Assembly: GCA_025057695.1 (NCBI GenBank) | Contig: JANWVB010000001.1 | Span: 1-43,517 of the forward strand | Origin: Patescibacteria group bacterium | GTDB lineage: Bacteria; Patescibacteriota; Microgenomatia; UBA8517 | Length of the DNA: 43,517 nt | Reading direction: 5' to 3' | Translations under genes and position numbers: made by a program | Notes under the pieces: generated by a model | Database searches by the model: none | What the model was told of the DNA's origin: nothing | What the model saw: only the letters and a program-made list of their open reading frames with translations | Part shown: positions 1,714 to 36,187 of the stretch, piece by piece | Position numbering within the stretch: the first letter of the stretch is position 1 | Layout of the letters: each line of letters starts with the position of its first letter

Positions 1714-4326
1714 ATGAACAAAAAAGATCAATTAGATAAATTTACAACTCCAATGATGAAGCAATATGCTTCGATCAAAAAAAAATACAAAGATTGTTTA
1801 CTTTTCTTCAGACTAGGCGATTTTTACGAATTGTTTTTAGACGATGCCCAAATAGGCGCTCAAGTTCTTGACATAGCCCTTACCTCAAGGCCAAAAGGCA
1901 AAGACGGCCGAATTCCCATGTCTGGAGTGCCATATCATGCAGTTGATGTATATTTGGCAAAGTTAATAAAAGCTGGATATAAAGTTGCAATTTGCGAACA
2001 GGTAAGTGAACCCAATAAATACGGCATTGTTGAGAGAGATGTTGTAAGAATCGTAACACCAGGAACACTTTTTGACGAAAAGTCCTTAGATCGCAAACAA
2101 AATAATTATTTAATAAGCATTGATTACGACAACTTGTATTACTCTATATCAATAGCAGATATCTCTACTGGCTATCTGGCAACCTGTCAAAATACATACA
2201 CAGAAATTAATCAAGAATTAATTGACCAACTAATCAAAATTCAGCCTTCAGAATGTATTCTGCCAGAAAGGCTATATAATAATCCAAACCTACTAAAAAC
2301 TCTTAAAGCAATCAGAAATTTAGCAATATACCCCTATAATGATTGGGAAAGATACGCTAATAAAGAAACCTTGCTTGCGCAATTCGCGGTAAAAACATTA
2401 GACGGATTTGGCATAGAAAATCTTATTCTTTCTCAAAAAACCTGCGGCGCTTTAATTGGTTATTTGCAAAATACTCAAAAAGGAAAATTAAAACACATAA
2501 AAAAAATAAAAGTGCTCGAATCCGAAGAATACGTTTCACTTGATAAATCGACAATAATTAACTTAGAGCTTTTTTCAACAATACGAGAACGAGAAACATC
2601 CGGAACACTTTTATCAACTATCGATAAAACCAACACAGCAATGGGCGGACGAATGCTGAAAAATTGGTTGGCAAATCCACTAAGAAAAAGACAACAAATT
2701 TTAGAAAGACTTGATGGAGTGGAAGAGCTAATTAAAAACCATAAAGAAAGAGAGTCTATAAGAAATTTGTTAACAGAAATCCCAGACATTGAAAGAGTCT
2801 TTTCTCGTTTGTCAGTAGGCATTGGAAACGCCAGAGATTTAATAACATTAAAAAACGCGCTTGCAAAAATTATAAAAATTAAACATTTATTAGTTAAAAT
2901 TGACACCAAAATAATTCAAGACATCCAAAAAGAAATTTCAACCAAAATCACTTTTCTTGTCAGATATATAGATGATTACATACTCCCAGACCCTCCTTTC
3001 TCTGTGAAAGAAGGGGGAATAATACGAGAAAATGTCGATGAAAAAATTGACATGTTGCGCAAACTTATCAATGGGGTACAAGAATGGCTGGCTTCGCTAG
3101 AAAAAAAAGAGAAAGAGAGAACAAAAATTTCTTCGCTAAAAGTTAGATACAACAAAGTATTTGGTTACTATATAGAAGTTAGCAAATCAAACATAAAAAA
3201 CGTGCCCCAAAATTACATAAGAAAACAAACTTTGGTAAATGGCGAAAGATTTATCACACCTGAACTAAAAGAGTGGGAATCAAAAATTTTAGTAGCCGAA
3301 GAGGAACTGAAACAAAAAGAATATGAAATATACAATGAAGTTTTGCAAAATGTAATAAAACAATCTTTGCTTATACAAAAAGCGGCAAATGCAATAGCAA
3401 CACTTGACTGTTTAGTTGGATTTGCTGATTTGTCTGAAAGGCAAAACTACGTGAAACCTCAACTTCTATACTCAGGAGAGATAGTTATAAAAGAAGGCAG
3501 ACATCCAGTAGTTGAAAACTCGCTTCCTCAAAAAGCATTTATACCAAATTCCATAACTATGGATAACATCAAACAACCATTAATAATAATCACTGGACCA
3601 AACATGGCAGGAAAATCAGTTTTTATTCGCCAAATTGCTATTATTGTCCTTCTTGCCCATATAGGATGTTTTGTACCTGCATCAAAAGCAAGAGTAAGTA
3701 TTGTCGACAAAATATTTGTTAGATCCGGAGCGTCAGATATGATTGCTGATGGGCTATCAACTTTCATGGTTGAAATGGTAGAAACAGCTTTTATTCTAAA
3801 CAACGCTACCAGTCAAAGCTTAATTGTAATGGATGAGATAGGAAGAGGCACAAGCACATATGACGGAATAAGCATAGCTCAATCAATTGCCGAGTATTTA
3901 ATCAAAAATTTTACTCCAACTCCAAAAACTTTATTTGCAACTCATTATCATGAACTTCAGAAATTGGAAGAGATTTATCCTAACAAAGTAAGCAATTACC
4001 ACATGGAGGTTATTGAAAACGAAAATCTGCCAGTTTTTTTATATAAACTAAAACCGGGTGGCGCCTCTCACAGTTTTGGAATAGCGGTAGCCAAGCTTGC
4101 AGGAGTACCAGAAAGTGTCATAATAAATGCTCAAAAAAATTTGGGATCTCTCGAAAAAAATAAACAAGAAGATAAAAAAGCAAAAGATCAAATCAATCTT
4201 AAAAGTAAAAAATCAACAAATGAAGAAATTATCAATTTAATTAGAAACATTAATATCAATCAACTAACACCAATTGAAGCCTTAAATTTTCTTGCTCAAA
4301 TAAAAGAGAAGTATGCCAAAGATTAA
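1714..4326 (+). CDS. mutS: DNA mismatch repair protein MutS
   Basis: 870 aa. N-terminal mismatch-binding TPMMKQY..GDFYELF, Walker A GPNMAGKS, and DEIGRGTSTYDG and HYHEL motifs. Confidence 0.97.
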   Translation: MNKKDQLDKFTTPMMKQYASIKKKYKDCLLFFRLGDFYELFLDDAQIGAQVLDIALTSRPKGKDGRIPMSGVPYHAVDVYLAKLIKAGYKVAICEQVSEPNKYGIVERDVVRIVTPGTLFDEKSLDRKQNNYLISIDYDNLYYSISIADISTGYLATCQNTYTEINQELIDQLIKIQPSECILPERLYNNPNLLKTLKAIRNLAIYPYNDWERYANKETLLAQFAVKTLDGFGIENLILSQKTCGALIGYLQNTQKGKLKHIKKIKVLESEEYVSLDKSTIINLELFSTIRERETSGTLLSTIDKTNTAMGGRMLKNWLANPLRKRQQILERLDGVEELIKNHKERESIRNLLTEIPDIERVFSRLSVGIGNARDLITLKNALAKIIKIKHLLVKIDTKIIQDIQKEISTKITFLVRYIDDYILPDPPFSVKEGGIIRENVDEKIDMLRKLINGVQEWLASLEKKEKERTKISSLKVRYNKVFGYYIEVSKSNIKNVPQNYIRKQTLVNGERFITPELKEWESKILVAEEELKQKEYEIYNEVLQNVIKQSLLIQKAANAIATLDCLVGFADLSERQNYVKPQLLYSGEIVIKEGRHPVVENSLPQKAFIPNSITMDNIKQPLIIITGPNMAGKSVFIRQIAIIVLLAHIGCFVPASKARVSIVDKIFVRSGASDMIADGLSTFMVEMVETAFILNNATSQSLIVMDEIGRGTSTYDGISIAQSIAEYLIKNFTPTPKTLFATHYHELQKLEEIYPNKVSNYHMEVIENENLPVFLYKLKPGGASHSFGIAVAKLAGVPESVIINAQKNLGSLEKNKQEDKKAKDQINLKSKKSTNEEIINLIRNININQLTPIEALNFLAQIKEKYAKD

Positions 4327-5971
4327 AATATTGCCAGAATCAGTAGTGTCAAGAATTGCGGCCGGAGAAGTTATCGAAAGGCCTTCATATGTAATAAAAG
4401 AATTAATTGAGAATTCAATAGACGCTTTGTCCACACAAATAGATGTTGAAATTGAAGATAGCGGACTTGCTTTAATAAGAGTTGTCGATAATGGAATTGG
4501 CATGAGCAAAGAAGACTTGCTTTTATCTATCAAACCACATGCCACAAGCAAAATACACAAACTGGAAGATCTAACAAATATAAAAACACTTGGATTTAGG
4601 GGTGAAGCTTTAACAAGTATAGCTAATGTTTCTAATCTATCAATAGAATCAAAAAGAGAGAAAGACAAATTCGGACATAGACTAGTAAAAATTTGCGAAG
4701 ATATAAATATAGAACCAATAGCGTTGAAAGAAGGAACAAAAGTAGATGTGAGACAACTATTTGATAATGTGCCAACAAGAAAAAAATTTCTTAGTTCAAA
4801 AAAGACAGAACTAAAACATATAATCGACACTTTTATTGATTTTGTGCTAGGCACGCAAAACATTGGCTTTACTTTGAGAAGCGACAGCAAACTAATTTAT
4901 GAAATACTCAAAAAACAAACTATAGAAGAAAAAATTGAAAATGTATTTGGCCAAGAAATCTTACAAAACCTTTTGCATATAAATTACAAAGGCAGTTATT
5001 TATCCATAGAAGGCTTTTTGGCACATCCACAAATATCTTTCACAACAACAAACAAAATCTTCACCTATTTAAACAATCGAAGAATATACAATTCTCTTAT
5101 CAATTCCGCAATAAAAGAAGGTTATGAAAATTTACTCGAGCATACAATGTACCCAATGGCAATTCTGAAAATTAACATGCATACAGGGTTAGTCGATGTG
5201 AACATACACCCCAGAAAAGAAGATGTGCGATTTAGAATTCCCGAGCAAATATATTCTGAGACATTAAAAGCCATTTTAAATACCCTAAGCAAGAACAATT
5301 TAACATTCGGTAATATTAGCTGGAAAAAATCAGTAGTTAATAGCTATGCAGGCAACATACTCAAAAATGAACTTCATGAAGATAGCGCTTCAGAAAGCAA
5401 TGAAATATTACAAATAAAAAAGATATATTTAGTAAAAGAAACTCAATCGGGAGTAGCCTTTTTTGATCAACATGCAGTACATGAAGCAATACTTTTTAAG
5501 AAATTTAAAAAATCCTTTTTAGAAAAAATATCACCTAAAAATGCTTTAGAATTAGAATCGCCAATTTTGTTAAAACTACCCAAAGGAGAAATTGAAATTT
5601 TCTGGGACAACAAAGAAATTTTTAACAAGATTGGTTACAAAATTGAAGAATTTGGCAACAACTACCCAATCTTAACTCATGTCCCCAAGATACTGCATGA
5701 CCGTAACCATTTAGAAATAATAAGAGAAATAATAGAAAAACTGATTCAATCAAAAAAAGTAAGCAAAATAGATAGCAAAAGTTACAAAATGTTGTCATAC
5801 ATAGCTTGCAAAAGCGCTATAAAAGCTGGACAAACATTATCATCAGATGAAAGATTAAACTTGATTAATCAACTTGAAGAAGAAGACTTCTTATACACAT
5901 GCCCACACGGAAGACCAGTCAAAATTGAAATCACATTAAACCAGCTTAATAGATTTTTCAAAAGAAAGTAA
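4313..5971 (+). CDS. mutL: DNA mismatch repair endonuclease MutL
   Basis: GHKL ATPase N-terminus (RIAAGEVIERP, ELIENSIDA, DNGIGM, GFRGEAL). C-terminal endonuclease motifs DQHAVHE, ACKSAIKAG and CPHGRP. Overlaps the mutS stop by 14 nt. Confidence 0.95.
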   Translation: MPKIKILPESVVSRIAAGEVIERPSYVIKELIENSIDALSTQIDVEIEDSGLALIRVVDNGIGMSKEDLLLSIKPHATSKIHKLEDLTNIKTLGFRGEALTSIANVSNLSIESKREKDKFGHRLVKICEDINIEPIALKEGTKVDVRQLFDNVPTRKKFLSSKKTELKHIIDTFIDFVLGTQNIGFTLRSDSKLIYEILKKQTIEEKIENVFGQEILQNLLHINYKGSYLSIEGFLAHPQISFTTTNKIFTYLNNRRIYNSLINSAIKEGYENLLEHTMYPMAILKINMHTGLVDVNIHPRKEDVRFRIPEQIYSETLKAILNTLSKNNLTFGNISWKKSVVNSYAGNILKNELHEDSASESNEILQIKKIYLVKETQSGVAFFDQHAVHEAILFKKFKKSFLEKISPKNALELESPILLKLPKGEIEIFWDNKEIFNKIGYKIEEFGNNYPILTHVPKILHDRNHLEIIREIIEKLIQSKKVSKIDSKSYKMLSYIACKSAIKAGQTLSSDERLNLINQLEEEDFLYTCPHGRPVKIEITLNQLNRFFKRK

Positions 5972-9923: not shown

Positions 9924-10460
9924 ATGGATGACCAAACAAAAACAACAAACCAAGATCTTGCAGAAACTGCAAATACACAAGACCCTCAAATCAATTCTTA
10001 TTCAAGTGAAGATAATTCAACACAAATAAACCAAGTTGTAGACACAAAAAGTGCTTCTAGTCAATTTGATTACCTTCAAAACCTTCAATCTCAGATAAAT
10101 ATATATCTTTCAAGAATTGAAAATCTTAAGCAGGAAATCCAACCTGTAAAAGAGATGATTGATTCATATCTTTCAAACGATCCTTTATACGCTGAACTTT
10201 CTGTAAAAGCCAAAGAATCAACAAAAGAAAAAAGCAAAAGGAAAAAAGAGTTAATGTCCTCGCCAAACGGCAAAGCTCTAAATCAAAAGATGGAAAAAAT
10301 AAAAGAGGAACAAAATGAAGCAAACGAAATGCTTTCTCAACTGCTATCAGAATACCAAAAAGCTACAGGAGCAACTGTTTTTGAAGGAGCTGATGGAGAA
10401 ATAAGACAGATAGTAATGATAGCCAAACTAATACGCAAAACGAATCTAAATAGAGACTAA
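9924..10460 (+). CDS. hypothetical protein: low-complexity acidic N-terminus plus coiled coil
   Basis: Long ORF in a clean intergenic context. Q/N/S-rich N-terminus and K/E-rich heptad-like middle. No family recognised. Confidence 0.55.
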   Translation: MDDQTKTTNQDLAETANTQDPQINSYSSEDNSTQINQVVDTKSASSQFDYLQNLQSQINIYLSRIENLKQEIQPVKEMIDSYLSNDPLYAELSVKAKESTKEKSKRKKELMSSPNGKALNQKMEKIKEEQNEANEMLSQLLSEYQKATGATVFEGADGEIRQIVMIAKLIRKTNLNRD

Positions 10461-10503: not shown

Positions 10504-10513
10504 AAGGAGGTGA
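10504..10513 (+). promoter_or_regulatory. Shine-Dalgarno sequence (AAGGAGGTGA) for the FMN-binding protein operon
   Basis: Near-perfect anti-SD complement ending about 8-10 nt upstream of ATG 10521. Confidence 0.6.
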
Positions 10514-10520
10514 AAGTTTT

Positions 10521-11024
10521 ATGGAAGAAAACCATAGTGAACCAGAATCAAAACCAGATCAAAAAAACAGCAATTTCTTGCCAATGGCGGTTGTTTTTGT
10601 AATTGCCGCAATTGCAATTGGAGTATATTTAAGTCAGCAAAAACCTGCCACTCACACGACAAATACATCACCTGCAATTGAAATAACAAACGAAAAATCA
10701 TCTGATACAGTTGATACAGTTGTCAACACATACAAAGATGGGGATTATGAGGCGTTAGGACAATACACAACTCCCGGCGGGCAAAGTGAAATAGGTCTAA
10801 GAATAAAATTAGAAAAAGGGATAATAATAGATTCATCAGTAGAAATCAGAGCCAACGATCCGCCATCAAGAAGATTTCAGCAGGAATTTGCCAAGAACTA
10901 CAAACAATTTGTTATCGGCAAGAAAATTGACGATCTTAATCTAACCAAAGTTGCCGGTTCATCGCTAACCCCAAAAGGCTTTAACGAAGCTATCGCAAAA
11001 ATAAAAGCGGAAGCTAAATCGTAA
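10521..11024 (+). CDS. membrane-anchored extracytoplasmic FMN-binding domain protein (NqrC/RnfG-like)
   Basis: One N-terminal TM helix. YKDGDYEALG...IGLRIKLEKGIIIDSSVE...LTKVAGSSLTPKGFNEAIAKI matches the FMN_bind domain layout. VAGSSLT (10950-10970) occupies the place of the flavinylated vSGATiT motif. Confidence 0.7.
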   Translation: MEENHSEPESKPDQKNSNFLPMAVVFVIAAIAIGVYLSQQKPATHTTNTSPAIEITNEKSSDTVDTVVNTYKDGDYEALGQYTTPGGQSEIGLRIKLEKGIIIDSSVEIRANDPPSRRFQQEFAKNYKQFVIGKKIDDLNLTKVAGSSLTPKGFNEAIAKIKAEAKS

Positions 11025-11030
11025 CTAAAG

Positions 11031-11915
11031 ATGGATATCAACAACTTTACATTTGAAGCAACGGGGACTGTTTGGCAAATTGATATTTACGATCCTGTAT
11101 CGAAAAAAATTAAAGCCAAAATTTCTGATTTGGTAAAAAGTGAAGCTGACAATTTTGAAAAAAAATACTCAAGATTTAGAGACGATTCTTGGTTGAGAAA
11201 AATATCCCGATTAAGACAAAAGTCAAAATTGCCTAAAGACGCAAAAACTATCTTTGACTTATATCAAAACTTATACAAAATTACAAACGGAATTTTCACT
11301 CCGTTAATAGGAAGTTTCATGGAAGAATCAGGATATGACTCCAACTACTCTCTTATTCCCAAAATCTCGCTTCACCATCCGCCAACATGGAAAAACGCGA
11401 TTGAATACAACTATCCATATATTCAAATAAAACAAAATGTTGTCATAGACTTCGGAGCGGCTGGCAAGGGGTACTTGATTGATATAATAAAAAATTTGCT
11501 GAAAGACAACCAAATCAACTCTTTTTGCATTGACGCGGGAGGGGATATATACGTAAACAACCACCCCACAGGGAAAATGCAAATAGGATTGGAAAATCCC
11601 AAAAATTTATCTGAAGTAATTGGAATTATTTATCTTAATAACGCAAGCATTTGCGCGTCGTCGGGCAACAGGCGACGATGGGACAAATTTCATCATATTA
11701 TCAATCCTCAAACATTAAGTTCCCCTACCGATATTATTGCCACATGGACAATAGCGCAAAGCGCTTTAATAGCCGACGCAATGTCAACTTGCCTATTTTT
11801 GGTAGATAAATCTATATTGCAAAATGCTTACAATTTTGATTATCTCATCTTAAAAAAAGATTTTAGCTTTGAAAAATCAAGCGGTTTTGAAGCTGAATTA
11901 TTTTTAAAAAATTAA
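11031..11915 (+). CDS. apbE: FAD:protein FMN transferase ApbE
   Basis: FGAAGKGYLID, DAGGDIY and ASSGNRRRW..HHIINPQT motifs typical of ApbE. Lies 6 nt after the preceding gene. Confidence 0.9.
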   Translation: MDINNFTFEATGTVWQIDIYDPVSKKIKAKISDLVKSEADNFEKKYSRFRDDSWLRKISRLRQKSKLPKDAKTIFDLYQNLYKITNGIFTPLIGSFMEESGYDSNYSLIPKISLHHPPTWKNAIEYNYPYIQIKQNVVIDFGAAGKGYLIDIIKNLLKDNQINSFCIDAGGDIYVNNHPTGKMQIGLENPKNLSEVIGIIYLNNASICASSGNRRRWDKFHHIINPQTLSSPTDIIATWTIAQSALIADAMSTCLFLVDKSILQNAYNFDYLILKKDFSFEKSSGFEAELFLKN

Positions 11916-11918
11916 AAC

Positions 11919-13442
11919 ATGATACAAAAAATCGACACATATCTAAATAGCATCACAATGTATAAAATCACTGTTTACGCGCTTTGTGCGATTGCCTTAT
12001 TATCAATAGCATACGGATTTTTAGGGATACTCCCTTTTAACGCAATTTCTCTTATTGTTTCTTTGTCAGTAATAATCATAACATGCTATATTTCAAACAA
12101 AATTTGTCAAAAAATTTCTAATCTTCCCACAAACAATGATTCATGGCTTATAAGCGCGTTAATACTTTTTTTGATTATTGCTCCGCCAGATAATTATCAA
12201 AGCGATATTTTAATAACAATCATCGCAAGCGCAATTGCTATCTTCTCAAAATATATTTTCAAACTAAAAAACAGTCATATATTCAATCCAGTAGCATTGG
12301 CTCTTTTGATAATTGGCATTTTTGGCTTCGGAAATTCTATATGGTGGGTAGGAAGTGCAAATCTTGCAATACCTGTTGCCATATTGGGATTTTTAGTGGT
12401 TAGAAAGATAAGACAATCCGGCATGGTCTTTGCTTTTTTTATAACAACGCTTGTGACAATCAGTGTATTTAGCCTGAAAAACAATATTGATATTGTGAAA
12501 TCAATTTATGAGGTAGTTATTTCATGGCCAACAATCTTTCTGGGAACAATAATGCTTACAGAACCTTCGACAATGCCTGCAACAAATTTACAAAGAAAAA
12601 TATATGGAGCGGTAGTTGGATTTTTGTTTAGCTTTCAATTTTCTTTTGGCCCAATTTTTTCATCTCCCGAGCTTGCAATAGTAATTGGCAATGTATTTTC
12701 GTGTTTGATAAGTCCAAAACAAAAAACTATTCTTGCTTTTAAAACAAAGCTAAAAATAGCCAGAAACACTTACGAATTTGTTTTTGAGCCAGACAAAAAA
12801 TTGACATTTTTGCCCGGACAATATCTGGAACTAACTCTTAATACGACCACAAACGACACAAGAGGAAATAGAAGGTACTTTACTATTGCATCATCGCCAA
12901 CCGACACAAAAGTAAGATTTGGAATAAAGTTTGCGGATGCGAAAGGAAGTAGCTTCAAAGATACAATTTTTAATTTAAGAGCCGACGACAAAGTATTGGC
13001 AGGAAATTTAGGCGGCGACTTTGTAATGCCAAAAGACACCAATAAACCTCTAGTTTTCATCGCGGGCGGGATAGGAATCACGCCTTTTATAAGCATGATC
13101 AGATATCTTACCGACACCAAAGAAAAAAGACCCATTACTCTTTTTTACGCAAACAATACAAAAAACGACATCGCATACAAAGATGTGCTAGACCAAGCAA
13201 ACAAAAAATTAGGATTGAAAACTATTTACTTGCTTACAAACAAAAATTTGGTTCCAAAAAACTGGAAAGGAGAAGTAGGATACTTAAACGAAGAAATAAT
13301 CAAAAAACATGTAAAAAACCATAAAGAGCAAATATATTACTTATCAGGTCCAAACGCGATGGTTGATTCTTATAAAAATCTGCTTGCCAAAATCGGCATA
13401 CCAGATAAACAAATAAAAACAGATTACTTCCCCGGATTTTAG
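11919..13442 (+). CDS. fusion protein: RnfD/NqrB-like polytopic membrane domain plus FNR-like FAD/NAD(P)H-binding oxidoreductase domain
   Basis: The N-terminal ~265 aa carry HIFNPVA and ISWPTIFLGTIMLTEPSTMPAT, which align with RnfD FNPA and LSGATMLGAFFILTDPVT. The C-terminal part carries RRYFTIASSP (RxYS FAD motif), LVFIAGGIGITPF (NAD(P)H motif) and YYLSGPNAM. The start is 3 nt after the apbE stop. Confidence 0.8.
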   Translation: MIQKIDTYLNSITMYKITVYALCAIALLSIAYGFLGILPFNAISLIVSLSVIIITCYISNKICQKISNLPTNNDSWLISALILFLIIAPPDNYQSDILITIIASAIAIFSKYIFKLKNSHIFNPVALALLIIGIFGFGNSIWWVGSANLAIPVAILGFLVVRKIRQSGMVFAFFITTLVTISVFSLKNNIDIVKSIYEVVISWPTIFLGTIMLTEPSTMPATNLQRKIYGAVVGFLFSFQFSFGPIFSSPELAIVIGNVFSCLISPKQKTILAFKTKLKIARNTYEFVFEPDKKLTFLPGQYLELTLNTTTNDTRGNRRYFTIASSPTDTKVRFGIKFADAKGSSFKDTIFNLRADDKVLAGNLGGDFVMPKDTNKPLVFIAGGIGITPFISMIRYLTDTKEKRPITLFYANNTKNDIAYKDVLDQANKKLGLKTIYLLTNKNLVPKNWKGEVGYLNEEIIKKHVKNHKEQIYYLSGPNAMVDSYKNLLAKIGIPDKQIKTDYFPGF

Positions 13443-13623: not shown

Positions 13624-13697
13624 TGCGGGATCGTCTAATGGTAGGACAACAGACTCTGGATCTGTTTATTGGGGTTCGAATCCCTATCCCGCAGCCA
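13624..13697 (+). tRNA. tRNA-Gln (anticodon CUG), CCA encoded
   Basis: Hand-folded cloverleaf: acceptor TGCGGGA/TCCCGCA (U1:A72), D stem GTCT/GGAC, anticodon stem ACAGA/TCTGT with loop CTCTGGA, T arm TGGGG-TTCGAAT-CCCTA, discriminator G, then CCA. Confidence 0.9.
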
Positions 13698-13930: not shown

Positions 13931-14836
13931 TTACGGCTCCACAGTTTCTCTTCTGCTTTCTAATATTGATAATAATACTTCACTGCTGGAGAGTGGAGTT
14001 TGGTATCTAAAGTGTTCATAAGCATCAGTTATTACTCTTTGTGGATTTAAGAACCTTTCTCTGAGAGCTTTTTTGTATTCCTCCATATTAACTCTCCAGC
14101 AATGTCCCGACGGGCTTAACCAATATTCAATCATATCTTTACCATAACCATCTTTGATAGTTACTCGGCTTATTTCATTTGTTTGCGGATCATACTCAAC
14201 TTTTGGAGATTTTCTTTGAGAGTCGGCAATTTTATACCTTTCCCTAATTTGTTGAGCTTGCGACGGACCTAAATTGCCACTCTGAACAAAATGTGCAATC
14301 ACATCTTCAATTTCTTGAGGAGAAGGGAAAAAAGTACCAAGCTTATCGTCGTATGCTCTGAAAGCAAATTCAGGGTTACCGCTACCTAAATTATATCGAT
14401 TGCCTCTATAATGCGCCCAAACACTATTTTCTGCGATCTCAAACATTTCTTGCTCATAAGGACCTTGAACTTGTATTTCAACAAGAGGCAAATTTAATCG
14501 TCTAGCATGTTGTTTCATTTTTTCTGTAATTACCTGATCGATTGGCTCACCACGCTTGTCCACTTTGACAAAGAAACCTCTTAATTGCAGCGTCTCTCCG
14601 CTTTCAGATTTTCCAAAAGCCACAACCTCGTTATAGGTTCCACTAGAAGTTAATTTAAGTAATTGATCGCCAGAAAGCAGTAATCAACCTTGTGCCTGTC
14701 GTCTCAAAAATTCTTTGCTTGAACTATGCGACCCCATGTCAGTTGGGGAAGTGATAACGATATTGCCCTCTGGAGCTTCAACGATAATTCCTCCTTGTCC
14801 CCAAGTTTTCGTATGTGCTTGATCTATAAGAGACAT
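13931..14836 (-). pseudogene. unknown-function gene interrupted by an in-frame TGA (14684-14686)
   Basis: ATG at 14836 opens MSLIDQAHTKTWGQGG...RRQAQG, then TGA. The same frame continues unbroken (LLLSGDQLLKLTSSGTYNEVV) into the tracked ORF 13931..14623, which only begins at a GTG. No family recognised. Confidence 0.55.
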
Positions 14837-15497: not shown

Positions 15498-15839
15498 TTA
15501 TTCTAAATATTGAACCTGTGGTTCTTTTTCTTCGGATTCGAACCAGAAGGGCATATAAGCGGAAAGATCTTCAACGGTACTCCTGAAAGCAAAACCAGCA
15601 TTGTTAATCAATACGTCAACCTTTTTCAGTCTTTTTCTTAATTTTACAAATGAACGTTTTATAGAGGCAATATCCAACAAATCTGTTTCTGTAAAGAAAT
15701 AATCCTTATGTTTAAAATCGGCAACATTTTTTCTTCCCATTCATAAAACAATATACTTATTACTATCTAAGGCCTTTTCAACAAACGCTTTACCTATCCC
15801 TGAGCTAACTCCTGTAATTACCACATATTTTTTATTCAT
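15498..15839 (-). pseudogene. short-chain dehydrogenase/reductase (SDR), truncated and carrying an in-frame TGA (15741-15743)
   Basis: AAGGAGG SD, then MNKKYVVITGVSSGIGKAFV (TGxxxGIG Rossmann motif), YIVL, TGA, then MGRKN...VDVLINNAG. The ORF ends about 30 aa after NNAG, so the catalytic YxxxK region is missing. Confidence 0.7.
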
Positions 15840-16747
15840 TTCTGACCTCCTTTGCTAACTCATACAAAATGCCGGAGGAAATGTTATTGTTACTTGGAAC
15901 TACTATATCTGTGCCAAGAAATTTGCTAATTTGAAAAATATCAATCAAAGCATTTTCAGCAGACCACATATAATAGGGTTCGGCTGGAAACATTGACATT
16001 CGCTCTTCATAGGGTAGGGCAATTATTCTTTCGTACACAGGGTATAGCCTTTTAATTTGAGTCCGAAATGGGTGATCAAAAGCACCATTATTTTCATCAA
16101 GTTTCACGTTCATTGCTTTTAAAAAGTCAATAATGTTAGTTGTTCCATAAACCAGCAGTTCTGGTTTTTGTTTAGTCTTAGCTAAGGATTTCATTTCACT
16201 TTTTACATATTTTTTCGCATTCGCCAACTCTTTTTTGGTTGGGTGATGAGTTTTGTACAAGGTCTCTTGCATAAAGTAGGTACTTATTTTGAAAAGATGA
16301 GTTTCATATATATTATTGTCCTTGCCAATAACTACCTGTACACTGCCGCCACCGATATCAGATACAGCAATTGTTTTCTTTGGAAAATCCTTCGAAACCG
16401 AGTTGAAATAGATTCGTGCTTAATCATCATGGCTTAACATCTCGAGCGATACTCCAGTCTTGTCTTTTATTTCTTTAAGTACCTCTTTTGCATTTTTGGC
16501 CTTTCTTATAGCTTCAGTCGTTACAGCCTTATAATTATGAACACCCAACTCATCAAGTAGTATCTATAGCTTTACGTATTATTAAGCCATCGGTTTTATC
16601 AAGATCTCTTCCTAGTACCGTTAGTTCCTTTTCTCTAGCAAGAGTTTTTGATGAATAATTTTTATCAAATTCCCAAACTTTAAATTTGCTCTTTAAAGTT
16701 CCCACATCAATAACAGCCGTTCGTATATAATTATTTGGTTTTGACAT
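15832..16747 (-). pseudogene. Ppx/GppA-family phosphatase, with a frameshift and an in-frame TAA
   Basis: Three collinear pieces. First, MSKPNNYIRTAVIDVGTLKSKF... Second, after a frameshift around 16553-16563, LDELGVHNYKAVTTEAIRKAKN...LSHDD, then TAA (16420-16422), then ARIYFNSV...VSDIGGGSVQVV. Third, ORF 15832..16272. The phosphate-1 (DxGT) and phosphate-2 (DIGGGS) motifs of the ASKHA fold are present. Confidence 0.8.
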
Positions 16748-18619: not shown

Positions 18620-19126
18620 ATGAATGATAAGCCAACTTTGTCGTATTATTTTACTCATCAATATCTACGGGACATTGTGCAAGATTATTTCGCTTTTTTT
18701 GATTCTGTTGTCAGGTTAGGAGATGCGATTTTAAAAAAAACATTAAGACAGACTTTTGAAACTTTAAAAAACTATAATCTATCTGAAACAGATGTATTAA
18801 TAGAAGAGGATGATTTTTCCTCTTTTATGGTCCCAATAGGAGCAAATAAAGCCCCTTTATTGGTTATCAAATTGCCAAAACCTAAAAATACAACTGAAGC
18901 AAGTCATGTGGCAATATTTCTTGGAGTCAGGCCAGTTCGTTTCTTTACCTTTGAACTTCACTTGCCAAATGAAATAGAAAAACAAATAAATCCAAACGCT
19001 CAAACTAAATATCTTTTAGCTGAATGGACCAAAAAAGAGCACAAGCTGTTAAATTTTAGTTGCAATGATCCCGATTCAACTAAATTTGCCCAAGCAATCG
19101 CAAACATACTAAATACAACCCATTAG
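18620..19126 (+). CDS. hypothetical protein (168 aa)
   Basis: Intact ORF with ATG. No recognisable motifs. One of the few uninterrupted ORFs in the tRNA-Gln-adjacent patch. Confidence 0.5.
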   Translation: MNDKPTLSYYFTHQYLRDIVQDYFAFFDSVVRLGDAILKKTLRQTFETLKNYNLSETDVLIEEDDFSSFMVPIGANKAPLLVIKLPKPKNTTEASHVAIFLGVRPVRFFTFELHLPNEIEKQINPNAQTKYLLAEWTKKEHKLLNFSCNDPDSTKFAQAIANILNTTH

Positions 19127-34463: not shown

Positions 34464-35756
34464 TTATATTACAGGAGTCACCAAAGCAGGAATTTTATCT
34501 ACACCCAATGCTTTCAAAGCAGCAATCCTATGCCTTCCATCATCTCCAATATAATATTTACCATCCAATTGAATAATCTTAATCGGTTCTCTGCCACCAG
34601 CCACTATAGTGCCATTTCCTCTTTTTAGCTCATTTACAATATTCCAGATGTTGGAAACACCTCTACCAGCTGATTCACTTACCGACCATGTTTTTAGGTC
34701 AGATCCGCCAACAACTTTATCTAACTCAACCATTTGTGCAAGTTCCTCGCCCATATGTCTACCACTTATATCAGGCATTTGTTCAACATGTAAATTACGA
34801 AGAATTTGCTTTAGTTCTTCTTCGGAACCAATATGGCGAGTTATTTTGTCTACAACAGGATATTCATTTGGATTTCCTCTTTTTAAAAGTTCGTAATTTC
34901 TTGGAGTATCTGGTCTTGATTCAAGAACCCAGTTCGTCATTTCAACAAAAAGTGAAGAATAACCCGAACCATACGGATCATTATAAAATCTTAAATTACC
35001 ATGCCATTGTTGCATGTGATTTATAAAAGTTTCCCTAGGCATTTTGCTAGCTACCAACTTAGAAAATTCAATCAACTGCATTATTTGTTTCTCCGTTGGT
35101 AATTTGCCATTTACTTCAGGCCATGATTGATCAGATTCACGTTGATCAGATTCATACTGAAAATTATCCGGATAATCTGGTAACAATTTCAATCCTTTTG
35201 TCGCCAGTTTCTCAAAAACAACATCCTCGTCAGTTAATTTTGGCGCTAATTGAATAACCTCCCGAATGAATTTGTGCCTTATATCATCCGTCAAACAAGG
35301 AGCAATTTTGTTTATTGCATCTACTACACCACCCCTTTGGTTTTTATCCAGAGTGGTGATATAAACCGAGCTTGCTTGGCCATCAACTGTTTTTTCAGCA
35401 ATTAAAAGACCATATCTTTTCTCTTCAGGAACATAAGTGGAACTGGAATAAGTTTCGCCAACAGCAATCGATCCATAACTATTTTCAGCCCAAAAATAGC
35501 CGCTACGCACAGCGTGCCAAGGATGTGAGATTTCAGGATCAATGGATTCAGCCGCTTTTTGAAATTTGCCAATTGCAAAATAATCTCTGGGGTCAATCGG
35601 CAAACTTATCTCATTTCGAAATTGCTCATTCGCTTGGAAGCTCAAGTCTGGAGCAGGTTTTGCAATACCTGCTGGCACTTCTTCAACCTCAGTCATATCT
35701 AGAATTTTATCAGAAAAACTTGATCGAATAACAAGAACTAAATCAACATAGTACAA
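34464..35756 (-). CDS. hypothetical protein with a C-terminal ParB/Srx-like (ParB N-terminal nuclease-type) domain
   Basis: C-terminus PIKIIQLDGKYYIGDDGRHRIAALKALGVDKIPALV matches the ParBc DGxHR...A..lG...ip motif. The N-terminal ~350 aa are unrecognised. The tracked start is TTG; the first ATG (MTEVEE) is at 35696. Confidence 0.6.
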   Translation of the reverse strand: MYYVDLVLVIRSSFSDKILDMTEVEEVPAGIAKPAPDLSFQANEQFRNEISLPIDPRDYFAIGKFQKAAESIDPEISHPWHAVRSGYFWAENSYGSIAVGETYSSSTYVPEEKRYGLLIAEKTVDGQASSVYITTLDKNQRGGVVDAINKIAPCLTDDIRHKFIREVIQLAPKLTDEDVVFEKLATKGLKLLPDYPDNFQYESDQRESDQSWPEVNGKLPTEKQIMQLIEFSKLVASKMPRETFINHMQQWHGNLRFYNDPYGSGYSSLFVEMTNWVLESRPDTPRNYELLKRGNPNEYPVVDKITRHIGSEEELKQILRNLHVEQMPDISGRHMGEELAQMVELDKVVGGSDLKTWSVSESAGRGVSNIWNIVNELKRGNGTIVAGGREPIKIIQLDGKYYIGDDGRHRIAALKALGVDKIPALVTPVI

Positions 35757-36116
35757 GGGTTTTAATCTTGAATCTTTCTAAAAGGATTGTGTGTAAAAAA
35801 TTAGCATTTAGAAACATCTGCTTGAAATGTTTTACGCTTTACTTTCACTTAAATTTCTAAATATTTAAATTTCTCATTTTCTTTTCTATTTCGTCATAAA
35901 GTTCCAAACCGACCTGCTCAAAAACTTCCAGTAAATCTTTGTAGGTGTTTTTTAACTTTATTCGAAAGAACTAACCAAAACACACAAAAAGCTTTCTAGA
36001 AGCTTGTCTTTCCTTCTTTATTTACATTCGGAAAATCTTGAAGGGAATATACCAAAAAAGCATTTGAGATAATAAATACCAGCAACAACAAAAAAGAGCC
36101 TTTACTTTTGCGTGGG

Positions 36117-36187
36117 TCGGGGTAGCAGGAATTGAACCTACGCCGGACGCACCCCATGCGCCCATTCTACCGTTAAACTATACCCCG
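36117..36187 (-). tRNA. tRNA-Pro (anticodon GGG)
   Basis: Hand-folded on the minus strand: acceptor CGGGGTA/TACCCCG, D stem GTTT/GAAT with a GG in the loop, anticodon stem GGCGC/GCGTC with loop ATGGGGT (U33, GGG, G37), T arm GTAGG-TTCAATT-CCTGC, discriminator A. CCA is not encoded. Confidence 0.88.

Follow-up and report, generated by a model that had tools for sequence, protein, structure and literature searches.

Can three adjacent genes provide a bacterium with a route for electrons from cytoplasmic NAD(P)H to the outside of the cell? This question is raised by a locus of a Patescibacteria group bacterium within a 43,517-nt stretch of contig JANWVB010000001.1 (assembly GCA_025057695.1), all of which was analysed and is referred to below as the window. 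Patescibacteria (the candidate phyla radiation, CPR) are commonly portrayed as living by fermentation, with no respiratory chain, and such a route out of the cell would offer them a means of re-oxidising NAD(P)H with an external acceptor, for example iron, oxygen, flavins or the surface of a host. The locus comprises three + strand open reading frames (ORFs): ORF1 (10521-11024, 167 aa), a single-anchor subunit of the NqrC/RnfG type that is predicted to bind flavin mononucleotide (FMN) and to be an ApbE substrate; ORF2 (11031-11915, 294 aa), an ApbE that transfers FMN from flavin adenine dinucleotide (FAD) to protein; and ORF3 (11919-13442, 507 aa), in which an NqrB/RnfD-like membrane domain is fused to an FNR-type reductase.

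The original prediction, made from the sequence alone, had interpreted these genes as a collapsed Nqr/Rnf, with electrons passing from NAD(P)H via FAD and a membrane domain to a covalently bound, extracytoplasmic FMN. This architecture is supported by the domain matches, by alignment with E. coli RsxD, by topology deduced from homology and by the lipoboxes of ORF1 orthologues, and we consider it likely that the operon encodes a transmembrane electron conduit of the NQR/RNF-like kind, made up of two subunits, plus the enzyme that matures it. The module is an example of an already described NQR/RNF-like system and the idea is not new; since the same model was put forward in two earlier studies (PMC8238504; PMC11334425), the original prediction re-derives it. 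What is added here is a corrected homology of the flavinylation site, a linker deletion with a retained riboflavin pocket, a variant motif around Ser148 of ORF1, the division of the family into two flavours and a puzzle about the localisation of ApbE.

The ORF listing gives intergenic gaps of 6 nt between ORF1 and ORF2 and of 3 nt between ORF2 and ORF3. Direct reading revealed a strong ribosome-binding site only at ORF1, namely the Shine-Dalgarno-like AAGGAGGTG (10504-10512, + strand), which contains AAGGAGG and lies 8 nt before the ATG. Because the starts of ORF2 and ORF3 fall so shortly past the preceding stops, the sequence suggests that both genes are translationally coupled to the gene before them. 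The predicted packing of three ORFs behind one strong Shine-Dalgarno sequence was thus recovered when the coordinates were re-read, and the peptide strings on which the prediction relied (VAGSSLT, SWPT, FNPV, LTEPSTMP, RRYFTIASSP and GGIGITPF) were all found in place. A promoter and terminator scan gave no signal clearly exceeding that of shuffled sequence. Chance adjacency of the three genes was ruled out by the synteny kept across related loci (see below). As for ORF2, its annotation as ApbE was confirmed by a score of 140.7 bits against PF02424 (E 8e-41), by matches to solved ApbE/FmnB structures (1vrm, 6e-16; 7esa, 8e-13) and by all the expected FAD-binding and catalytic motifs, GAAGKGY, GGD, HHIINP and ADAMST.

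The ORF3 membrane domain and its fused reductase

Residues 1-266 of ORF3 (11919-12716, + strand) were assigned to a ten-helix NqrB/RnfD-like domain by Pfam, hhalign, a profile search and an AlphaFold2 (AF2) model. The score against NQR2_RnfD_RnfE (PF03116) was 39.4 bits, above the gathering score of 27.7, and hhalign of the ORF3 family against E. coli RsxD aligned residues 25-261 to RsxD 23-335 over 228 columns with an E-value of 2.8e-5, including all ten helices. The top 50 matches of whole ORF3 in Foldseek were matches of the FNR domain alone, and the membrane domain was tested instead by a domain-only profile. This profile, built from the first 270 residues of 31 family members, retrieved only RnfD (8ahx_D, 1.6e-6) and NqrB (3.6e-3) from the PDB; the profile was required, as phmmer with the ORF3 membrane domain by itself found no match there. 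These results support the RnfD/NqrB-like domain of the original prediction. The AF2 model of ORF3 (pLDDT 89.9, pTM 0.85) shows the helices that were expected and, after them, an FNR fold of two domains. The nearest relative of ORF3, with 95% identity, is annotated as belonging to a Patescibacteria metagenome-assembled genome (MAG).

In RnfD, the N and C termini are cytoplasmic and two inverted five-helix halves are joined by an extracellular "five-helix linker", which bears the flavinylated Thr and forms a lid over the FMN cavity of the outer leaflet, while the riboflavin in the inner leaflet is flanked by Asn124 and the strictly conserved Asp248 (PMC9588780). The predicted loops of ORF3, from hydropathy and direct reading, hold at least 12 Lys and Arg residues inside versus 2 outside, a positive-inside pattern that agrees with a cytoplasmic FNR domain. 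Both pocket residues have counterparts in ORF3. In FNPV (residues 122-125; 12282-12293, + strand), N123 corresponds to RnfD Asn124 by alignment and helix positions, and neither N123 nor P124 varies among the 31 fusion sequences. In LTEPSTMP (residues 213-220; 12555-12578, + strand), whose counterparts in the alignment are fiaTDPVTSP in A. vinelandii RnfD and atDPV in NqrB, E215 is the equivalent of Asp248 at the riboflavin and putative Na+ site; E215, P216 and T218 are invariant in the same 31 sequences, as is E251.

The loop between the two halves is very different. From N123 to R162 in the RKxR loop there are 39-44 residues in all 31 fusion proteins, compared to 115 in RsxD. As judged from these alignments, the five-helix linker (~75 residues) is deleted throughout the fusion family, and GFGNSIWWVGSA (residues 136-147; 12324-12359, + strand), which includes the invariant W142 and W143, is its short relic. 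The segment missing from the family is the one that in RsxD holds T187 (GISQAT187PLD), which we take, on the basis of V. cholerae RnfD, to be the flavinylated residue. This assignment is supported by the position of Thr153 of C. tetanomorphum RnfD within the five-helix linker (PMC9588780) and by the SQAT string at RsxD 184-187. Since the linker bearing T187 is deleted, the membrane domain would have no Thr to accept a covalent FMN.

The original prediction had read SWPT (residues 202-205; 12522-12533, + strand) as the altered form of the SGAT flavinylation site of RnfD. The part of this claim that stands is the loss of the site from the membrane domain; the positional homology was wrong, because the true site lay in the deleted linker. 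RsxD holds SQAT at 184-187 and a second, intrahelical SGAT at 276-279, and it is with the latter, intramembrane string that SWPT aligns in hhalign. Moreover, position 205 is Leu in 17 of the 31 family members, and SWPT was rejected as the counterpart of the site at which RnfD is flavinylated. Another idea, that a cytosolic ApbE might target a cryptic motif in a cytoplasmic part of ORF3, was dropped, as inspection by eye found no conserved [ST]-G-[AS]-[ST] among the invariant residues of the family alignment.

The FNR-type FAD/NAD(P)H domain occupies residues 270-507 (12726-13442, + strand) and is marked by R319-x-F321-T322, GGIGITPF and the C-terminal aromatic residue F507. Within it, RRYFTIASSP (12870-12899, + strand) is the string of the FAD-binding barrel and GGIGITPF (13065-13088, + strand) is the NAD-binding G-x-G-x-x-P string. 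ORF3 scored 74.8 bits against NAD_binding_1 (PF00175; cut-off 22) and 18 bits against FAD_binding_6 (PF00970), which is under the cut-off of 21.1, although the R-x-[YF]-[ST] motif is present nonetheless. Among NCBIfam models, ORF3 matched nqrF (3.6e-20) and flavohaemoprotein (1e-29); the nqrF match covers just residues 340-504 and reaches 72 bits versus a cut-off of 295. A PDB profile search found NqrF and T4moF at ~1e-19, and in Foldseek the whole FNR module superposed on 4eh1 (TMt 0.85), its matches including reductase modules of flavohaemoglobin and NqrF. The PF00175 score, the two motifs and the 4eh1 superposition uphold the fused FNR domain proposed originally. Pfam gave no Fer2 match that would mark a 2Fe-2S domain in ORF3.

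How does this module compare with the known enzymes? Searches of the whole 43.5-kb window by tblastn with E. coli RsxA, RsxB, RsxC, RsxE and RsxG gave no match below E = 0.1, in agreement with the predicted lack of other Nqr or Rnf subunits nearby; the set of homologues that makes up a canonical Rnf was thus not found in the window. The module shares with Rnf (8ahx, 8rb8; C. tetanomorphum; PMC9588780) the ten-helix RnfD fold, the cytoplasmic termini, the riboflavin-pocket motifs FNP(A/V) and LT(D/E)P, and an extracellular FMN domain that is tethered to the membrane and has its acceptor where the terminal helix starts. It differs in having no RnfA, RnfB, RnfC or RnfE and no five-helix linker with covalent FMN. 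The cytoplasmic partner in Rnf is RnfC with FMN and 4Fe-4S, whereas here it is the fused FNR domain, and the semicircular electron path of Rnf is replaced by a single path. Among respiratory enzymes, the FNR domain is closest to the FAD/NADH module of NqrF in Na+-NQR (7xk3, 8a1t), whose NqrB is related to the membrane domain and which likewise has ApbE-dependent FMN on a periplasmic subunit. Different from Na+-NQR, the module has no 2Fe-2S domain, NqrA, NqrD, NqrE, evident quinone site or covalent FMN in the membrane domain, and no homologue of the RnfA/E (NqrD/E) type was found in the window. NOX and ferric-reductase enzymes such as S. pneumoniae NOX (8qt6), which appear among the Foldseek matches of ORF3 via the dehydrogenase domain, also fuse a cytoplasmic FNR-type dehydrogenase to an outward-conducting polytopic membrane domain. 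However, their membrane domain is a di-haem ferric reductase while that of ORF3 is RnfD-like and presumably flavin-based, and the resemblance is by analogy only.

The kinship with NqrB and RnfD raises the alternative that the module is a redox-driven ion pump, a stripped-down Na+ or H+ pump in which the passage of electrons through the RnfD-like domain moves cations and yields a membrane potential. NqrB/RnfD is the proposed Na+-conducting subunit, and the putative Na+-site residues Asp248 and Asn124 have the invariant counterparts E215 and N123, alongside the invariant E251, but flavin binding explains the conservation of these residues equally well. The five-helix linker and the occlusion loop, which are the proposed gates of the extracellular half-channel in Rnf (PMC9588780), are deleted, and the RnfA/E and NqrD/E subunits needed for a gated two-path mechanism were not found in the window. 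The driving force for a pump would also depend on which acceptor is used. We therefore consider ion pumping unlikely.

The predicted FMN-binding partner ORF1

If electrons leave the membrane domain on its outer side, they need a recipient there, and for this role ORF1 is the candidate. At the level of its family, sequence comparison allows ORF1 to be accepted as a divergent FMN_bind protein. It has 232 homologues, of which Patescibacteria supply the majority, and FMN_bind (PF04205) was matched at E<=1 by 40 of 52 close homologues, the best at 1e-6. A hidden Markov model (HMM) of the family matches the canonical FMN_bind partners that occupy the same syntenic slot in other phyla, with E-values of 1e-4 to 1e-7. 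The AF2 model of ORF1 has a pLDDT above 90 over residues 68-167.

The original prediction placed VAGSSLT (10950-10970, + strand) where NqrC and RnfG are flavinylated, and this placement held in alignment. In MAFFT, the AGSS of ORF1 is aligned with V[ST]GA[TS] in the canonical partners and with TGAT(174) in E. coli RsxG. The variant flavinylation motif spans T142-K-V-A-G-S-S148 (10944-10964, + strand), and Ser148 (10962-10964) is the predicted acceptor of covalent FMN according to both sequence and model. Across 52 aligned homologues, G146 and S147 never vary and S148 is kept in at least 90%, in the context KV[SA]GSSLTPKGFN; the conserved motif of the family is [TD]KV[SA]GSS. In the AF2 model, S148 is located at the N-terminal end of helix 149-166, the terminal one. 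The acceptor Thr164 of RnfG occupies the start of its terminal helix (PMC9588780), and the position of Ser148 is thus the same as that of this residue. A partner from WWE3 (L065, 6523-7152) carries VSGASLTTDGF, which is intermediate between the GSS type and the canonical GAT type.

A single hydrophobic stretch was recognised in ORF1, a transmembrane signal-anchor at residues 19-37 (10575-10631, + strand; Kyte-Doolittle peak 2.59), which is followed by a T/S/A/P-rich linker of ~35-37 residues (family median 37 aa).

Topology, proposed electron path and the signal-less ApbE

On which side of the membrane does the FMN domain lie? In Actinobacteria and Peribacteria, the orthologues of ORF1 are made with lipoprotein signal peptides that include a lipobox, and from this comparison the FMN domain of ORF1 is predicted to lie outside the membrane. 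The original prediction would have failed if the FNR and FMN domains lay on the same side; topology by homology puts the FNR domain inside and the FMN domain outside. In the loci concerned (L062, L074, L076-L078, L080, L081 and L012), the lipobox is LAGC, VTGC or VGC, and in the partner of L076 an RR pair precedes the hydrophobic core.

The opposite orientation has to be weighed because of ORF2, whose N-terminus has no hydrophobic segment, signal peptide or lipobox, with no in-frame room for one upstream. Periplasmic ApbEs typically have such a signal, for lipoprotein processing or secretion, at the N-terminus, although the family is not defined by it. Signal peptides were likewise found in none of the ApbEs linked to 67 related clusters from five phyla. 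All components could then act in the cytoplasm: ORF1 would be N-out/C-in, would be flavinylated inside by the signal-less ApbE and would work with the FNR domain, leaving the RnfD-like domain as an anchor or transporter. Cytosolic ApbEs with cytosolic substrates are found in Klebsiella pneumoniae (PMC12052999), and the N-tail of the window ORF1 is net acidic (2 Lys versus 5 Asp and Glu). However, averaged over the family, Lys and Arg number 2.7 in the N-tail versus 1.2 in the C-side flank, a weak bias towards N-in. The lipoboxes of the Actinobacteria and Peribacteria partners, LAGC or VTGC, also conflict with a cytoplasmic FMN domain, and the canonical partners start with MKK and then a hydrophobic stretch, like signal-anchors. 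Furthermore, tethers outside the cytoplasm are typically long and S/T/P-rich, like the linker of ORF1, the deletion of the five-helix linker opens the FMN cavity on the outer face, and a published multimer model has the partner docked on the outer side (PMC11334425). Together, these data make an all-cytoplasmic arrangement quite improbable.

For the transmembrane conduit, we propose the following path. NAD(P)H would reduce FAD in the cytoplasmic C-terminal FNR domain of ORF3, and electrons would pass to a non-covalent, riboflavin-type flavin in the cytoplasm-side pocket of the membrane domain, flanked by N123 and E215. From there they would reach the FMN that ApbE is predicted to join to Ser148 of ORF1 via a phosphoester bond; this FMN probably enters, in trans, the cavity opened by the linker deletion. 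ORF1, tethered by its anchor and flexible linker, could then swing out to reduce an external acceptor.

This path agrees with what has been published for NQR/RNF-like systems, which are reported mainly in Actinobacteria and CPR (PMC8238504; PMC11334425). Meheust 2021 defined them by a PF03116-PF00175 fusion inside a flavinylation cluster, for which ApbE or FMN_bind has to occur within five genes (PMC8238504). ORF3 combines PF03116 and PF00175 in one protein and has ApbE immediately upstream. In the AlphaFold-multimer model of Huang 2024 for Ktedonobacter racemifer, the flavinylation site of the partner lies beside the non-covalent flavin site of a membrane domain that is without the flavinylated Thr, and the covalent flavin of the partner was suggested to sample that site (PMC11334425). 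Here too the Thr is missing from the membrane domain, and an extracytosolic NqrC/RnfG-like subunit was found at the family level. The window thus shares with the published system the fusion, the adjacent ApbE and a small NqrC/RnfG-like partner. It differs from Ktedonobacteria in the partner motif, KV[SA]GSSLTPKGF in a protein unseen by PF04205 versus V[ST]GA[TS], and in a longer ApbE (~290 aa versus ~247 aa).

Both papers propose a one-way flow of electrons from NAD(P)H to the extracytosolic flavinylated subunit (PMC8238504; PMC11334425), and this is the direction adopted above. The module could also operate in reverse, an external reduced donor such as host or environmental flavins or quinols delivering electrons to NAD(P)+ in the cytoplasm, perhaps at the expense of the membrane potential, as when Rnf runs backwards. 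Rnf can work both ways (PMC9588780), as can FNR-type domains, and nothing in the sequence fixes the direction. However, there is no evidence for an external donor of low enough potential, an outward flow is favoured both by the published reading and by thermodynamics if the acceptor is a common one (Fe(III), O2, oxidised flavins), and some clusters elsewhere adjoin VIT1 iron transporters (PMC8238504), which makes reverse operation very improbable.

Several observations count against the conduit with ORF1 as its flavinylated subunit. The window ORF1 itself does not match PF04205 even at E<=1, so that its original assignment as FMN_bind is carried by the homologue family and the motif alignment and fails for the single protein. 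The ORF1 family profile retrieved neither NqrC nor RnfG from the PDB sequences, just chance matches at ~E 0.4, and comparison of the family with E. coli RsxG by hhalign yielded a probability of 2%, which is not significant, a single-sequence template being too weak. For the full-length ORF1 model in Foldseek, IscU/SufU (5e-3) ranks above the FMN-binding domains (8p2a, 1.9e-2; RnfG, 2.4e-2; NqrC, 0.27) and none reaches 1e-3; these scores are probably lowered by the disordered N-terminal 67 residues. Compared to the published motif D-x-x-[ST]-G-A-[ST] (PMC12052999), T-K-V-A-G-S-S keeps just the Gly and a hydroxyl acceptor, with three or four deviations (D to T, S to A, A to S, and T to S at the acceptor). 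Ser acceptors have been reported for ApbE substrates, for which D-to-A and A-to-V changes are tolerated (PMC12052999). In addition, no conserved gene for a terminal acceptor was found near the module in 80 loci, just generic ABC ATPases and a two-component pair. The literature search found no determination of flavin, activity or topology for any member of either flavour; it also found no other paper on an NQR/RNF-like system and none connecting ApbE with Patescibacteria. The deleted linker with the kept riboflavin-pocket residues, the Ser148 motif and the uniformly signal-less ApbE offer targets for the first biochemistry.

The last of these points against the conduit is ApbE itself. A signal-less ApbE goes with an exported substrate in every cluster examined, which raises the question of how an exported domain receives its flavin. 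The flavin could be attached before export, the genome could encode a second ApbE that is secreted, or ApbE itself could be exported by an unconventional route. In the searched text of PMC8238504 and PMC11334425, no discussion of this localisation problem was found.

The first of these options can be made more specific. The dedicated ApbE may act in the cytoplasm and put FMN on the short linear motif before export, after which the flavinylated chain crosses the membrane. This suggestion is based on the signal-less state of 67 of 67 ApbEs and on substrates that have a Sec signal-anchor or a lipoprotein signal, no twin-arginine (RR) motif being found in the N-tails of the ORF1 family, and we regard it as tentative and rather doubtful. 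We know of no earlier description of such a pre-export route of extracytosolic flavoprotein maturation. If true, it would spare the cell the export of FAD, which suits minimal genomes.

Distribution of the module and its surroundings

Is the module peculiar to this bacterium? In a scan that used one genome per species, the fusion was present in at least 480 species genomes. Carriers among the matches listed include many lineages of Patescibacteria, Ktedonobacteria and other Chloroflexota, Mesorhizobium, Kaistia, Microbacteriaceae, Arthrobacter and Spirochaetota. The module also occurs in complete CPR genomes, for example CP066688.1 and OY970314.1. Clustering of the membrane domain at 50% identity (E<=1e-30) gives 276 clusters, whose listed members are nearly all ~500 aa long. 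Synteny was counted in the 80 best loci, which represent five phyla: in 67 of the 80 the gene directly upstream of the fusion encodes ApbE, and about 55 have an FMN-binding partner. Co-occurrence, which the original prediction had proposed to survey in Patescibacteria, is thus retained across five phyla.

Two flavours can be distinguished. Type A, to which the window belongs, has an ORF1-like partner with the GSS motif and an ApbE of ~290 aa, and occurs in CPR and Actinobacteria; the lipoprotein partners from Actinobacteria and Peribacteria mentioned above are of this type. Type B has a canonical partner with a GAT or GAS motif and an ApbE of ~247 aa, and occurs in CPR, Chloroflexota, Alphaproteobacteria and Spirochaetota.

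Some loci show further features. A histidine kinase (21 of 80 loci) and a response regulator (16 of 80) recur beside the fusion gene, for example at L059 1512-3778, and are not present in the window; these two-component neighbours hint at regulated expression in some lineages. In Kaistia (L075, 6340-8004), the longest ORF over ApbE is 554 aa, which is either a partner-ApbE fusion or an artefact of ORF calling at high GC. Records titled as "uncultured Gammaproteobacteria" MAGs (L004-L006, L023, L031, L039 and L070) contain CPR-like clusters with 39-47% identity to ORF3, and their titles look taxonomically unreliable.

The genes around the module in the window are housekeeping genes, encoding MutS, MutL, BipA, a PD-(D/E)XK nuclease, a DUF192 protein, RelA/SpoT, RecJ and SecD, together with other ordinary chromosomal genes for a CCA-adding enzyme, a ComM-like protein and PepF. 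Directly upstream of the module, on the same strand, is a 178-aa ORF rich in Lys, Glu and Gln (9924-10460). It is one of five ORFs of 146-430 aa without a Pfam match, the others lying at 13931-14623, 15832-16272, 18620-19126 and 34464-35756. A tRNA-Gln(CTG) gene (13624-13697, + strand) is directly downstream of ORF3, and a tRNA-Pro(GGG) gene (36115-36187, - strand) lies farther along the window. The longest ORFs for mutS (1714-4326) and mutL (4313-5971) share an overlap of 14 nt.

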